From a virus: a DNA stretch of 64,000 bases. Within the stretch, counting starts at the first letter, position 1. Each line of letters begins with the position of its first letter. The position numbers and the translations under genes were made by a program. The DNA is taken from IMG/VR virus record IMGVR_UViG_3300039074_000056, positions 1 to 64,000 of that record; one strand, 5' to 3'. The notes beneath the pieces were generated by a model. That model searched no databases. It saw only the letters and a program-made list of their open reading frames with translations, and was not told where the DNA came from. Below are positions 10,008 to 64,000 of the stretch, one piece after another.

Positions 10008-10042
10008 AGCATAGCTTAGTAGGCTTGTTTTTTCAAGGGACT
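10008..10042 (-). promoter_or_regulatory. leftward promoter TTGAAA-17-TATGCT carrying the AGTCCCTTGAAAAA motif
   Basis: reverse complement of AGTCCCTTGAAAAA at 10029-10042; -10 at 10013-10008. Confidence 0.65.
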
Positions 10043-10064
10043 TTTATGAAAATAAATTAAAATT

Positions 10065-10099
10065 AGTCCCTTGAAAAAGCAGAATTGTCATGTGAAACT
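10065..10099 (+). promoter_or_regulatory. rightward promoter TTGAAA-17-GAAACT (TG-extended) carrying the AGTCCCTTGAAAAA motif
   Basis: motif 10065-10078; TGTGAAACT 10091-10099. Confidence 0.5.
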
Positions 10100-10139: not shown

Positions 10140-10168
10140 TTGACAGGCAGTAGATTTAGTAGTACAAT
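10140..10168 (+). promoter_or_regulatory. sigma70-type promoter for ncRNA element A
   Basis: TTGACA (10140-45), 17-nt spacer, TACAAT (10163-68). Confidence 0.8.
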
Positions 10169-10174
10169 CCACAA

Positions 10175-10485
10175 CATTCCTAGAGGCACAGGAATCGGCA
10201 TGAAGAGATATGTTCTTTGACACTCACCGCATCATGCTTAAAGCCCTAAGAAGAGGAACAGTATACGGGGTAAGCGACGATCTAACCACATGGTCGCGAA
10301 TACTTCCATTGTTGATGTTGACGATGGTTGCATGTGGAATACATCTGGCAGCAGCCAGCTTCGAGCCATCTCAATTTGGATGTGCAGAAAAGGGAGTATA
10401 GATGAGCTAGGGCTTGGGGAATGGGGTGGACGCAACCACTCTTAAATACCCACGGCTCTAGGATTCTTGTATCTATACTTCTTCA
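10175..10485 (+). ncRNA. structured ncRNA-like element A (unassigned family; paralog of 62822-63145)
   Basis: multiple stems; 13-bp closing helix AGGGAGTATAGAT/ATCTATACTTCTT; motifs GGTAAGCGA, ATCTGGCAGCAGCCAGC, GGGAATGGGG..CTCTTAAATACC shared with element B. Confidence 0.75.
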
Positions 10486-10536
10486 ACCAAACTCATTTGG
10501 ATATGTAATTAATATAGTTAAGATAAGGAGAACAGA

Positions 10537-10959
10537 ATGAATAAGAGTCTTAGAGAAGCTGTGTTACAGAAGCTGGTGTTTAGAGATGGAGTCGTATACA
10601 GAGCTACAGCATCTGGCTTAAAACCATTGCCTTTTGATGACACATATGTGGAGACAAAGGTAAGTGGCATGAAGTTGAAGACAACGCTCCCTCGTCTTTG
10701 CTACTTCCTACAGACAAAGGAATGGCAACCTGTTGTGGATGTTATTGACTCAAAGAAGCCGATGACATTAGACAACCTTGTTATCGGTAAGCAAAAGACA
10801 TTGATGGCTAAATACGACTATACCACCCACCTCACTTCGTTTTATTGGAAGGATGGGAGTAGGCGTAGACAGAAAACCATTGATTCCTCAAGCACAGAGG
10901 AAATTACACTTTTCATTCAGAAAATGAAAGAATATAAAATAAAATATTTAGATAAATAA
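10537..10959 (+). CDS. degenerate HNH-endonuclease-like protein
   Basis: 'PRLCYFLQTKEWQPVVDVIDSKKPMTLDNL' aligns by eye with the HRL.W....G.WP..VDHIDG...NN..ENL motif but lacks the catalytic His/Asn. Confidence 0.45.
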   Translation: MNKSLREAVLQKLVFRDGVVYRATASGLKPLPFDDTYVETKVSGMKLKTTLPRLCYFLQTKEWQPVVDVIDSKKPMTLDNLVIGKQKTLMAKYDYTTHLTSFYWKDGSRRRQKTIDSSSTEEITLFIQKMKEYKIKYLDK

Positions 10960-11007: not shown

Positions 11008-11228
11008 TCAGCTAGACATTAATTATTTCCCCAGCCGATTCTAGGCAAGGCTGGGAATATCGCAGGCAATCAAACTTGGATAGAATCTAATTTGAGTTGT
11101 CGTGTATCAGCACTGCACTTCTGTATCCATTGTGTTCTCTCCTTCGCAATGTAACTTAGATACGCTGGATGATAGTAACCAGCACCTATTGTTTTTGTGT
11201 TGGCTACTCCCAGCACTTATTTTTATTC
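11008..11228 (+). ncRNA. putative small structured RNA with anti-Shine-Dalgarno-like loops
   Basis: five hairpins downstream of a promoter, ending in a stem plus U-tract; loops TTCTCTCCTT (11135-44) and CTACTC. Confidence 0.45.
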
Positions 11229-11746: not shown

Positions 11747-11821
11747 GTTCCGATAAGATAATGGTAGTCGGCTGGCCTCCAAAGCCATGCAGTGGTAGTT
11801 CAAATCTATCTCGGTTCGCCA
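11747..11821 (+). tRNA. trnW: tRNA-Trp (CCA), with imperfect acceptor stem
   Basis: cloverleaf; anticodon loop CTCCAAA; T-loop TTCAAAT; 3' CCA encoded; two U-U mismatches in the acceptor stem. Confidence 0.75.
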
Positions 11822-11826
11822 AATAT

Positions 11827-11902
11827 GCTGCTATAGCTCAGTTGGTAGAGCTATTCACTTGTAATGAATGGGTCGTGGGTTCGAGTCCTACTGGCAGCAC
11901 CA
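11827..11902 (+). tRNA. trnT: tRNA-Thr (TGT)
   Basis: canonical cloverleaf GCTGCTA..TGGCAGC-A-CCA; D arm AGCTCAGTTGGTAGAGC; anticodon loop CTTGTAA; GTTCGAG. Confidence 0.95.
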
Positions 11903-26270: not shown

Positions 26271-27032
26271 GTGGGTATGGTCGACATTGTAACTATTGGT
26301 TATAGGATTCAAACAGAAGGTCTCGCTCAAGCCAATAAGGAAATTGACGGTCTACTTAAAAAGAGTGATAAGTTAAATAATACTAAGGTTTCCCCAAAGA
26401 CAGATTCCAAAGGTCTTGACGATGTTGCAAGAGCTTCTGCTAAGGCCACTAAAGAATTGTCTGTCCTGCAAAAACAGAAAGAGAACTTAGAGAAAGGCTT
26501 TAACAAGTCAACTAGCCTAGCTCTTGCCCGTATGCAAGTAGCTGGTGTTCCTCCTGCCACAATAGCAAGCTATGCTAATGCAAGAAAGCAAGTGGATGAA
26601 CTTTCAAACAGCATGTCGCGACTTAGAGTATCCACTCAAGGTGGTTTAAGTTTAATCTCTGGTCTTGGTATTGGTCTTGGTACGGCGGTCTTTGGACAAC
26701 TTGCCGTTGGTGTTGGTAAGTTAGCTGACAGCATGACGCTTCTTCAAGCCCGTATTAAGCTCGTCACACCAGTTACAGAAAACCTTAACGCTGTACAGCA
26801 AAGGTTGGTTGATACAGCCATTGCAACAAGAACAGACCTCACCTCAACAATTACATTGTATAATCGACTTCAGCCAGCATTGTCTCGCTACGGTAAGACA
26901 ACCTCGGAGGTACTGGATATTACAGAAGCATTTGGTAGAACACTTCTACTATCAGGTGCGAATACGCGAGAAGCAAGTGCTGCAATCCTACAGTTCTCTC
27001 AGGCTATGGGTAGCGGTAAACTTGCAGGTGAT
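26271..27032 (+). CDS. tape measure protein, exon 1
   Basis: tape-measure domain 'ADSMT.L.ARI', 'QFSQAMGSGKLAGD' ending at the 5' splice site. Confidence 0.9.
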
Positions 27033-27285
27033 AGATAAATTTGTCACCCTACGGAGTAATTCGTAGCACAAACACTACCTAAAACGGGAAACTCCTTCAG
27101 GACAATCCGTTGCTAAATATAGAGCTAAAGCTCTATTAAATGCCCAACGACTAGCCGCAAGGCGTACACTCAAGTGAGTGGAAATGGTAGTCTCCCTTAC
27201 GGGATGAAGATATAGTCTCATCTGCATGGCAACATGCAGCAGCTTAATTGCGGCATAAGCCTAACGACCTTATGTGAAGATAAAG
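27033..27285 (+). mobile_element. group I intron (subgroup IA2-like), 253 nt, no internal ORF
   Basis: P1 GGTGAT/GTCACC with U-G at the splice site; P3 ACTACC/GGTAGT; P7 GACTA/TAGTC; CAACGACTA and GAAGATATAGTCT core; P7.1/P7.2; GNRA-capped P2 and P9; terminal G; splicing restores 'LAGD|EFRS'. Confidence 0.93.
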
Positions 27286-62175: not shown

Positions 62176-62393
62176 TTTTCTCTCTCCTTCTTTATCTGAT
62201 TGATGTGGGACTTGGCCCTGTAACTTGACCAATTCCTCTCGAAGTTTGATGCTAAAGTTCCAAAAGATATGACAGTCACTATTCCATCAAGAAGTTCCAT
62301 AAAACCTTGAACCCACCCCATGATGTGCATCTTCATGTTCTGATGCTTCCAGCGGATAATACGAATACCAAATGGAAGTTTAATACCGCTCAT
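62172..62393 (-). CDS. hypothetical protein
   Basis: ORF overlapping neighbours. Confidence 0.5.
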   Translation of the reverse strand: MSGIKLPFGIRIIRWKHQNMKMHIMGWVQGFMELLDGIVTVISFGTLASNFERNWSSYRAKSHINQIKKEREK

Positions 62394-62674
62394 GTTTGTT
62401 CTCCTTCAAACTTAGCCTTCAACTCAAGATAACGCTTGCGCTCACTCTCAAGCTTCTTGGCTTTCTTCTCTGCCTTTTCTTTAGCAAGGCGCTCTTTCTT
62501 TTGTTGGGTTGTCTCTTTTAGAACGATGTTTAGTGTTCTCTCATTATTGTATCCATAGTAATCACTTTCAATGGTATAACCTTTTCCAGTATATTTTGAC
62601 AGGTATTCAATAGCTTTCTCTACTGTTTCACCATGCCCAAATTCAAAATCTTGCTCAATAAATATGTCGTTCAT
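62390..62674 (-). CDS. hypothetical protein
   Basis: ATG 62674 after AGAGGAG; C-terminal 'ER..Y.ELKAKFE'. Confidence 0.6.
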   Translation of the reverse strand: MNDIFIEQDFEFGHGETVEKAIEYLSKYTGKGYTIESDYYGYNNERTLNIVLKETTQQKKERLAKEKAEKKAKKLESERKRYLELKAKFEGEQT

Positions 62675-62705
62675 GTTTGTTCTCCTCTTTTGATTGAATG
62701 CGAGT

Positions 62706-62735
62706 ATCCTACACCAATTCACTACTCTGCGTCAA
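62706..62735 (-). promoter_or_regulatory. leftward sigma70-type promoter
   Basis: TTGACG-18-TAGGAT. Confidence 0.65.
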
Positions 62736-62788
62736 GCACTAATTTCAAATAATTTTGCAAGAGATAGGGTTTTATAGTGAGAAAGTTG

Positions 62789-62818
62789 TTGACACGGGGA
62801 AGGTAGGTGTAGTACAAT
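62789..62818 (+). promoter_or_regulatory. sigma70-type promoter for ncRNA element B
   Basis: TTGACA-18-TACAAT; shares 'TAGTACAATC' with the promoter of element A. Confidence 0.8.
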
Positions 62819-62821
62819 CGG

Positions 62822-63145
62822 CCTGTTTTCTGACTAGAAGGAAAACATGTAACCAAGGTTTTCTGCGTTGACGACTGTCGGCCTTGGTGATTGTGCCCGT
62901 AGGCAAGGGGAAGAAGATCACGGTACGCCCCAAAGTGGTAAGCGAATTTATCAGCCACGAACCGTTAGTGACTCTTAAGTGAGGTAAATGATAAACTGTA
63001 TCTGGCAACAGCCAGCCTAAGCCTCGTCTGAATTTACAGAGAGATTTATGGGGGACAGAGCTAGCCTGTGTTGAAGGGAATGGGGCAGTGTAGGAACTGC
63101 TCTTAAATACCTTCTCTATAGGGTTAGTATAAGCTCTGTTTCCTA
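62822..63145 (+). ncRNA. structured ncRNA-like element B (paralog of 10175-10485)
   Basis: same motifs in the same order; closing helix GGGGACAGAGCT/AGCTCTGTTTCC; compensatory changes relative to element A. Confidence 0.75.
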
Positions 63146-63275
63146 GCCTGAACTGATTTACAGTAGTATATAGATAAATATTAATATAAGATATAATTTA
63201 GATAAGATCAACAAACATGCAGTAAAAGAGCTAAACGAAAGAATAGCTTTGCTTAGGATTAGATGAAGAAGGGTG

Positions 63276-63304
63276 TTGACATAGAATATCACCTTCTATA
63301 GTAT
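63276..63304 (+). promoter_or_regulatory. sigma70-type promoter
   Basis: TTGACA-17-TAGTAT. Confidence 0.7.
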
Positions 63305-63335
63305 CTGCTTATGTTGAGCAACAGGAGAGATTTTT

Positions 63336-64000
63336 GTGGAGCAAGCCAAGCAAGTAGTGTACCTAATGAAAAACAGTATGTCTTTATATAAGATAGGCAT
63401 TAGCGTAGACCCTAAGAGAAGGTGTAACGACATACGACTGGCTTCTGGCATTCATACAGAAATATTAAAGACATTTGATACAACAAACGAAGCAAGGCTA
63501 GTAGAGCAATCTCTGCACAGGCACTTTTCTTCAAAAAGAAAAGAAGGAGAATGGTTTCGTCTTACTAAAGAAGATTTGCAAGACATTGCAAAAACAGTAG
63601 CTCAGGTGGATTTTGCCATAACAGACGGCATAAACAATGTTGCCAGTTCAGCAGAAGAGTTGACTGTTGAAGAGTTGTTTAACTTTATTGCCTCTTTCGG
63701 TTTGCCGGAAGACTTTACAGTAAGTGACTGTCAAAGATTGTGGGATTCTCAGGTGGCTTTCTTTAAGTGCCTTCTTTCTGTATCTAATACAAAGTTTCGT
63801 CAGCTTTTAGAGATGTTGTTGGATAGGGGATACCATGTTAGTGAAAATATTTGTAATATAGATGAAAGAAAACCATTTTGGGCAGGGGTTACTTTTTGCT
63901 CTTTCGTTATTGAGTATTATCCCGTGGTTCCAAAAAATCTTTTAGGAAATGTTTCATCCGTATACAAATACGAAACTGCTAAGAGGATGTATGAAGAATA
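63336..64000 (+). CDS. GIY-YIG (T5orf172-like) domain protein, 3' truncated by the window end (not in ORF track)
   Basis: GTG after AGGAGA; MEQAKQVVYLMKNSMSLYKIGIS.DP.RR...E..LH.HF...R..GEWF.L; frame open to the window end. Confidence 0.75.
   Translation, partial: MEQAKQVVYLMKNSMSLYKIGISVDPKRRCNDIRLASGIHTEILKTFDTTNEARLVEQSLHRHFSSKRKEGEWFRLTKEDLQDIAKTVAQVDFAITDGINNVASSAEELTVEELFNFIASFGLPEDFTVSDCQRLWDSQVAFFKCLLSVSNTKFRQLLEMLLDRGYHVSENICNIDERKPFWAGVTFCSFVIEYYPVVPKNLLGNVSSVYKYETAKRMYEE

Follow-up and report, generated by a model that had tools for sequence, protein, structure and literature searches.

Copy B, a structured element on the plus strand at positions 62789-63165, is probably a diverged paralogue of a phage leader RNA family and would act in cis as the leader of an early operon. 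The window, meaning the whole 64,000-nucleotide stretch that was analyzed, covers the first 64 kb of a virus record that is 80,925 bp long and has direct terminal repeats. The partner of B is copy A (10140-10510, plus strand), a canonical member of the family that has the promoter, the 5′ core and the 3′ domain and is recognized by both the 5′-domain model (R2) and the 3′-domain model (R3). B has a promoter, is paralogous to A, belongs to the family by its 3′ domain, shows covariation and carries no coding signal. Three observations are new: B passes the 3′ model and fails the 5′ model; the family was absent from the bacterial and archaeal loci tested, with 0/80 among the matches listed; and the short repeats of the family are specific to each copy, not to each genome. 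The large terminase of the virus shares 60% identity with its counterpart in Limnohabitans phage DC31, 48% with that of Curvibacter phage P26059A and 42% with those of Pseudomonas Pakpunavirus phages such as PAK_P1.

To relate the two copies, R1, a covariance model, was built from the 3′ domains of A and B. With this model B reaches 184.2 bits and A 171.9 bits, and in the whole 80,925-bp genome nothing beyond these two is found at E ≤ 1. B is the sole partner of A in the 80.9-kb genome, and the copy relation, which a sequence-only reading had proposed in calling B the second copy of a structured element, is far above chance. Mean column identity in the A/B alignment is 73%. Long blocks common to both are the P5 hairpin, GGGAATGGGG and CTCTTAAATACC; beyond the second repeat, into the start of the ORF, homology is ambiguous. 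RNAalifold predicts 58 pairs in the combined 3′ domains, and 17/58 are changed on both sides. The fold energy of B is only moderately better than that of shuffled sequence (z = −2.05, with 3/100 shuffles folding as well), and that of A has z = −3.38 (0/100 shuffles as good).

Five helices lie at matching places in the 5′ parts of A and B, with differing sequence and similar loop sizes in the two copies (P1, 8 versus 10 nt; P2, 28 versus 23; P3, 19 versus 17; P4, 14 versus 14; P5, 4 versus 4). The helices were picked by eye, and the count of 26 pairs kept in both copies leans towards pairing; 13 of these are changed on both sides, one on one side and 12 are unchanged. The claim that the 5′ hairpins of B match those of A in position and not in sequence is borne out by this comparison. 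P1 (TGTTTTC/GAAAACA, 62824-30 / 62841-47) stands at what would be the 5′ end of the RNA, and is drawn from the minimum-energy fold and the A/B comparison. Six of its pairs are kept in both copies, four of them changed on both sides, and it is missing from Pseudomonas-type family members. P2 (ACCAAGG/CCTTGGT, 62852-58 / 62882-88), which encloses a 23-nt interior, rests on the same two lines of evidence. P3 (62907-62931) pairs GGGG at 62907-10 with CCCC at 62928-31 around an AAGAAGA-type loop in both the fold and the R2 alignment, and is homologous to the family P3 with its GAAGA loop. P4 (GTGGT/GCCAC, 62935-62958) has a 14-nt loop and comes from the A/B comparison; at the same place copy A has GCGAC/GTCGC, also with a 14-nt loop; between the copies, two of the pairs differ at both positions and one at a single position. 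Two of the three 5′ hairpins named in the sequence-only reading, those now called P1 and P2, are thus present in the minimum-energy fold. The third, GTGATT/GATCAC, is absent from that fold and encloses one strand of P3, a helix aligned by the family model.

The same reading had suggested a conformational switch or pseudoknot, with both copies able to pair alternatively from the 5′ part into the 3′ domain. All the sequence details given in that reading are found where it placed them, including these pairing partners: GCCCCA (62927-32) and TGGGGC (63081-86) in B, and AAGCCCTA (10241-48) and TAGGGCTT (10408-15) in A. Complementary 6-mers between the halves of B are nevertheless at chance, numbering 6 against a mean of 6.8 in 500 shuffles, 63% of which have at least as many. 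Copy A has 13 against 6.4, and 4% of shuffles have as many. The switch common to A and B finds no support, as the positions are not homologous: in alignment columns, the pairing of A occupies 78-85 and 256-263 and that of B occupies 111-116 and 270-275. At the columns of A's pairing B pairs 5/8 positions, and at those of B's pairing A pairs 4/6. By homology, GCCCCA corresponds to the 3′ strand of the predicted local helix P3.

The promoter of B (TTGACA-18-TACAAT, 62789-62818, plus strand) is of the sigma-70 type and matches the consensus at 11/12 positions, which would place the start of transcription near 62825. Its hexamers are identical to those of the copy A promoter at 10140-10168. B thus shares the host-type promoter found directly upstream of family members on the same strand, a feature that is not universal, since one structural subtype follows a terminator-like hairpin instead. 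On the minus strand, a weak promoter-like site (TTGACG-18-TAGGAT, 62706-62735, 9/12 matches) faces the leftward operon, whose first ORF is 62390-62722, so the B locus is a divergent-promoter locus. Between the promoter of copy A and its leftward gene lies a long, A/T-rich, near-perfect palindromic hairpin (10025-10082), which could serve as a bidirectional terminator or operator; its Rfam matches, on either strand, are miRNA-like noise.

At its 3′ end B runs into the A/T-rich tract noticed earlier, found here at about 63164-63212 (plus strand). The tract resembles the tail of copy A (ATATAGTTAAGATAAGGAG), and other low-GC family members have similar A/T-rich tails downstream. The ribosome-binding site of copy A is lost in the tail of B, and ATGCAGTAA at 63217-25 opens a frame of two codons only. 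Further on, a second promoter-like site (63276-63304, plus strand, 10/12 matches) stands ahead of a gene that runs from 63336 onward (238 aa in the whole genome) and has MUG113 (E 1.9e-15) and T5orf172 (E 1.8e-9) domains, both of which we take to belong to the GIY-YIG clan. No relatives of this protein were found in viral contigs. The claim that the element is not simply the 5′ UTR of this gene stands insofar as the gene has its own promoter-like site; against it, there is no terminator-like site between B and the gene, so read-through is likely. Downstream of B, terminator-like sites are about as frequent as chance predicts (7 versus 7.5 expected) and give no specific pointer to antitermination. 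The operon of A has such a site at 11197-11216.

Both leaders have an extra gene directly behind them. Behind A is a 140-aa ORF (10537-10959) with no family match, ahead of a conserved small zinc-ribbon gene; behind B, from 63336, is the T5orf172/MUG113 endonuclease-like gene with its own promoter. These genes look like mobile-gene insertions just behind strong early leaders. A tie between the zinc-ribbon gene and the RNA was considered and found too poorly backed: the gene matches the one behind PAK_P1 copy 1 only weakly (E 7.8e-4), and it was detected neither in one genome that carries the RNA nor in three that lack it. Farther into the operon of A, Rfam reports a second tRNA-like gene (11747-11818, plus strand, 41 bits) just before tRNA-Thr (11827-11902). 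It was not called by ARAGORN and may be an aberrant or degenerate tRNA.

The family, of RNAs of ~340 nt, was reached through copy A. The divergent intergenic region of PAK_P1 that follows a TTGACA promoter has 5′ motifs in common with copy A, and its relatives by blastn are 179 phage records, 178 of them from Pseudomonas phages. A search of IMG/VR with the pattern AGATATGT-N4-14-CACTCACCG gave 46 loci. R2 was built from 28 sequences and has 14 pairs; it confirms 36/46 of these loci (E ≤ 0.001), most of which are in its seed alignment and match by construction, and the 10 that fail are those already dropped by eye. Among bacterial and archaeal loci, where the pattern occurs in at least 120 stretches, R2 matched 0/80 among the matches listed. 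The 5′ domain of the family RNA comprises P2, around an internal loop that is strongly conserved, then P3, whose loop is of the GAAGA type, and then P4. The core consists of P2 enclosing AGA(T/A/C)ATGTC ... C(A/C/G)CTCACCG, then P3, and its invariance is partly an ascertainment artefact, members having been found with the core pattern.

Copy A matches R2 with 54.4 bits (E 4.9e-11). B gives no match with default filters, and with filters off its best score is 8.4 bits (E 0.21), with only P3 aligned. The 5′ core is not found in B: its P2 occupies the position of the conserved core without the core motifs, and R2 is unmatched there. Second copies found by R2 in other genomes vary at single core positions, and B differs far more.

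The 3′ domain gives a different result. R3, whose 14 source sequences all come from other phages and not from the window, was run on a search space of 193 kb (the window, DC31 and parts of P26059A), for which the short calibration makes E-values rough; at E ≤ 1 there were two matches only, one in A (10344-10509) with 25.8 bits and E 5.7e-5, the other in B (63001-63170) with 20.3 bits and E 0.0018. The 3′ domain of B is recognized independently of A. B thus keeps the 3′ module and the 5′ helix layout, but its 5′ core is different and its P2 is without the conserved internal loop.

In the family, the 3′ domain consists of P5 followed by a large interrupted hairpin flanked by a copy-specific short repeat. 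In B, P5 is CTGGC-AACA-GCCAG at 63002-63015, placed by the family alignment and R3. The first direct-repeat copy, DR1 (63028-63039), aligns to R3 helix 2 and lies just before the large hairpin (63050-63143), whose outer stem aligns to R3 helix 3 and which contains the conserved internal-loop blocks GGGAATGGGG (63076-85) and CTCTTAAATACC (63100-11). The second copy, DR2 (63153-63163), lies just after the hairpin and was placed by repeat search and R3. All these parts are on the plus strand. The family structure of the domain, 37 pairs in 7 helices, was drawn by hand and tested on the 14-sequence alignment, where 90.7% of cells are paired, compared with 33-48% when partners are slid by 1-3 columns. 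Both sides have changed in 16/37 pairs, and 0/500 shuffles reach any of five measures. Covariation is greatest in the outer stem of the large hairpin (7/10 pairs changed on both sides) and nil in the middle stem.

In B, the exact 8-nt word ATTTACAG of the direct repeat stands on either side of the hairpin with a spacing of 124 nt; 22/200 shuffles have a repeat of that length or longer. Across the family, 12/14 copies have the large hairpin between exact repeats of 8-11 nt spaced 68-124 nt apart, and for copies taken singly 0-12% of shuffles are as good. An exact flanking repeat of at least 8 nt is missing in G006 copy 1 and in G004. The sequence of the repeat varies among members and also between the two copies within each of three genomes (G001, G005 and G006); both PAK_P1 copies have the same repeat. 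Between two close relatives a single letter differs, in the first and the second repeat alike (AGCGTCATGAGA versus AGTGTCATGAGA). The motif is not scattered through the genome. A complementary partner strand for the direct repeats was sought and rejected, as complements of 6-10 nt occur at inconsistent places. In PAK_P1 copy 2 (L087 1660-1720), the first repeat is expanded by an internal palindrome, and the word ATCTGCAT occurs twice before the large hairpin and once after it.

Searches for known or closer relatives were negative. At gathering scores, the whole window has no Rfam 15 matches apart from one to a group I intron and two to tRNA; the intron (27023-27239, plus strand) scores 76 bits (E 1.6e-17). 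At E ≤ 10, the interval 62600-63400 gives four chance-level matches (best E 1.7), the A region gives only miRNA- or snoRNA-type noise on the neighbouring hairpin, and at 16 member loci 51/51 Rfam matches are tRNA. Neither B nor A has a blastn match among 50,697 phage records. An exact 3′-domain pattern occurs in 0 viral contigs. A looser one occurs in 86 viral stretches, of which 80 were scanned with R1 (0/80 at E ≤ 0.01), and in 14 stretches of metagenome contigs (0/14 matching at E ≤ 0.1). None of the 29 stretches with the pattern ATCTGGCANCAGCCAGC was convincing (best E 0.029), and two B-specific 5′ patterns gave no matches and one unrelated coding match, respectively. As relatives of the A/B-type element were not found, no orthologue of B with its flanks could be aligned. 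R1 finds nothing in DC31, P26059A or PAK_P1, because the distal 3′ hairpin differs in the studied phage.

Copy number differs among related genomes. By R2, two copies are present in PAK_P1 (at 89495 and 28243), PAK_P4, G001, G005 and G006, and one in G002, G003, G004, G007 and the studied genome. No copy is found by R2 in DC31 or PAK_P3, or by R3 in PAK_P3 or P26059A, and P26059A has only a weak R2 match (11.9 bits). In the complete related genomes G002-G004, blastn finds no second 3′ domain. With no match in DC31, P26059A and PAK_P3 at the thresholds used, the RNA appears dispensable for this phage type. The DC31 site syntenic with copy A (L031 14420-15068, minus strand) is without the family RNA; in its place are a long A/T-rich stretch, in which words resembling TAAGTTATA recur, and then a GC-richer stretch of ~150 nt with short repeats of its own.

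In PAK_P1, each of the two copies occupies a divergent intergenic region, follows a TTGACA promoter and continues into the ORF behind it, and the PAK_P4 record has an annotated promoter at 89135-89162, directly upstream of its copy. A layout with two leaders is therefore common to PAK_P1 and the studied phage, and is not universal. Most family members run into an ORF within ~10-90 nt. First-type copies are upstream of same-strand tRNA arrays at 13 loci and in copy A. No tRNAs are nearby for second copies (0/5) or for the second structural subtype (0/11), and B has none within 8.7 kb downstream. The second subtype (L040-L042, L046, L054, L062, L063, L069, L072, L074 and L075) has the same 5′ core, a different 3′ domain and still the flanking repeat; often, in place of a sigma-70 promoter, a terminator-like hairpin with a U-run stands ahead of it.

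Natural variants of B were taken from contigs of four sequencing runs; of the runs in which the stretch was found, none is recorded as RNA. Contig X5, from an unrelated groundwater study, covers 62847-63006 with 4 differences, and both of its flanks are unlike those of B; the P5 stem is kept and its loop differs. A B-type 5′ domain thus occurs in at least one other phage lineage and is not unique to the studied genome. The freshwater contig X3 covers 62724-62936 with 4 differences, of which 62824 T>A and 62829 T>C break P1 pairs, though its depth is only 2.5 and its differences may be errors. X4 matches through the promoter region as far as 62831 and diverges beyond it. P1, which is not kept in X3 or X5, appears not to be conserved beyond A and B.

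An RNA this large, with many helices and conserved internal loops, could instead be a stand-alone structured RNA that is released from the early transcript and acts in trans on a partner from host or phage, a role also suspected of other large RNAs associated with phages. No ORF lies directly behind B. At the 13 loci, as in copy A, the element precedes tRNA arrays on its own strand, and processing of tRNA precursors yields stable RNAs; cleavage sites could then be marked by the large hairpin together with the repeats beside it. We nevertheless judge this unlikely. B is not ended by a terminator-like site, most members run on into an ORF within ~10-90 nt, and tRNAs are absent near second copies (0/5), B (0 in 8.7 kb) and the second subtype (0/11). 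Another account makes B a decaying duplicate of A, functionless itself, of which only the promoter still matters. With the ribosome-binding site mutated, only a 2-codon frame left and the ORF that follows A missing, B could indeed be decaying, and these losses speak against an active leader; in addition, B is without the conserved 5′ core, the next gene has its own promoter-like site, and three complete related genomes are single-copy and without a second 3′ domain. Against decay, helices are kept through changes on both sides, in 13/26 pairs of the 5′ part and in 17/58 pairs by RNAalifold. The 3′ domain of B is still recognized by R3, the direct repeat is intact, and the contig from another study keeps 160 nt of the 5′ domain with 4 differences while its flanks differ. 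Taken with the losses, this leaves decay decidedly improbable.

Function at the level of DNA has also to be weighed, with protein-binding or recombination sites at a divergent promoter, and repeats flanking an inverted repeat that are functional without being RNA. B does lie between divergent promoters, its copy-specific direct repeats do flank a long inverted repeat, and an RNA-level explanation for them was not found. G-U pairs and strand-specific covariation (90.7% versus 33-48% when slid) fit RNA helices, however; copies lie downstream of a same-strand promoter, save in one structural subtype, and the repeat motif is not dispersed in the genome, so that we give a DNA element very little weight. 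Least credible of all are small proteins encoded on the minus strand. Two 78-aa ORFs do exist there (62722-62958 and 62772-63008), and the sequence-only reading had named them as what would overturn its claim were they conserved genes, which they do not appear to be. Neither matches Pfam or PHROG (0/2 each), neither resembles the 65-aa minus-strand ORF of A (best E 17), and they overlap each other and read against a strong promoter.

A cis-acting leader is favoured because of the position of the RNA after early promoters and its run-on into ORFs. In this model, a host-type sigma-70 promoter at the point where the strands diverge would transcribe B, and the B RNA would form the start of the rightward early transcript. 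It would act in cis on its own transcript, through elongation or termination, processing or stability of the early operon, and B may be a differently tuned or core-independent version of the leader. Beyond this, we put forward more tentatively, as a possibility and on balance a doubtful one, that in virulent phages the family makes up a class of its own among large regulatory leader RNAs, not described before. A sensing 5′ core would respond to a ligand or protein and control the 3′ module, the twin copy-specific repeats on either side of the conserved hairpin would set the fate of the early transcript, and replacement of the sensor in B would let the two operons answer different signals.

Several known systems are comparable in part. 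The putL and putR polymerase-utilization RNAs of HK022 are ~70 nt with two stem-loops, act in cis and make the polymerase terminator-resistant; they lie just downstream of early promoters, two per genome and one per early operon. By analogy, the family would share with them a leader just after a host-type early promoter, two copies and a presumed cis action. It differs in that the leader RNA is ~340 nt with at least eight helices and no sequence similarity was seen, and in that several related genomes have one copy or none. Lambda has nutL and nutR leaders, with an RNase III hairpin in the N leader, and T7 has early RNase III sites. Like these, the family has paired early-operon leaders with a long interrupted hairpin between leader and first gene, but its 5′ domain is far larger, and we know of no counterpart in the lambda nut or T7 systems to a copy-specific repeat flanking the hairpin. 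With GOLLD and ROOL, large ornate phage-associated RNAs in Rfam, the family shares a large multi-helix architecture and a first copy often beside tRNA arrays. Unlike them it is smaller, follows a promoter and usually runs into an ORF, it has no match to GOLLD, ROOL, HEARO or any other Rfam 15 family, and B is without a tRNA within 8.7 kb downstream. The stable RNAs C and D of T4 are described in the available part of PMC4933390 as tRNA-cluster RNAs. As phage RNAs transcribed together with a tRNA cluster they parallel copy A and not B; they are much smaller.

Supplementary tables aside, no description of the leader RNA was found in the accessible parts of the literature. The available portion of PMC5563952 does not mention it. 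PAK_P3 sRNA1 and sRNA2, which that of PMC4933390 gives as late transcripts of ~100 nt, were ruled out as the family RNA on those grounds. Pieces of the family could be in the IMG/VR catalogue of 8,495 candidate RNAs of 29-151 nt, as presented in the accessible part of PMC10690425.

If the favoured reading is true, many virulent phages open their early operons with a large, conserved and uncatalogued RNA. Carriers would include the Pakpunavirus phages PAK_P1 and PAK_P4 as well as freshwater phages like the one studied. Pseudomonas phages used in therapy are among the family carriers. For annotation, note that leader regions are called small hypothetical proteins in some phage records and should not be. 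The direct repeat that co-evolves around the large hairpin is a clear and testable oddity, and B naturally separates the two halves of the RNA, with the 3′ module kept and the 5′ core replaced. The family would then offer a new handle on the timing of early gene expression in such phages.
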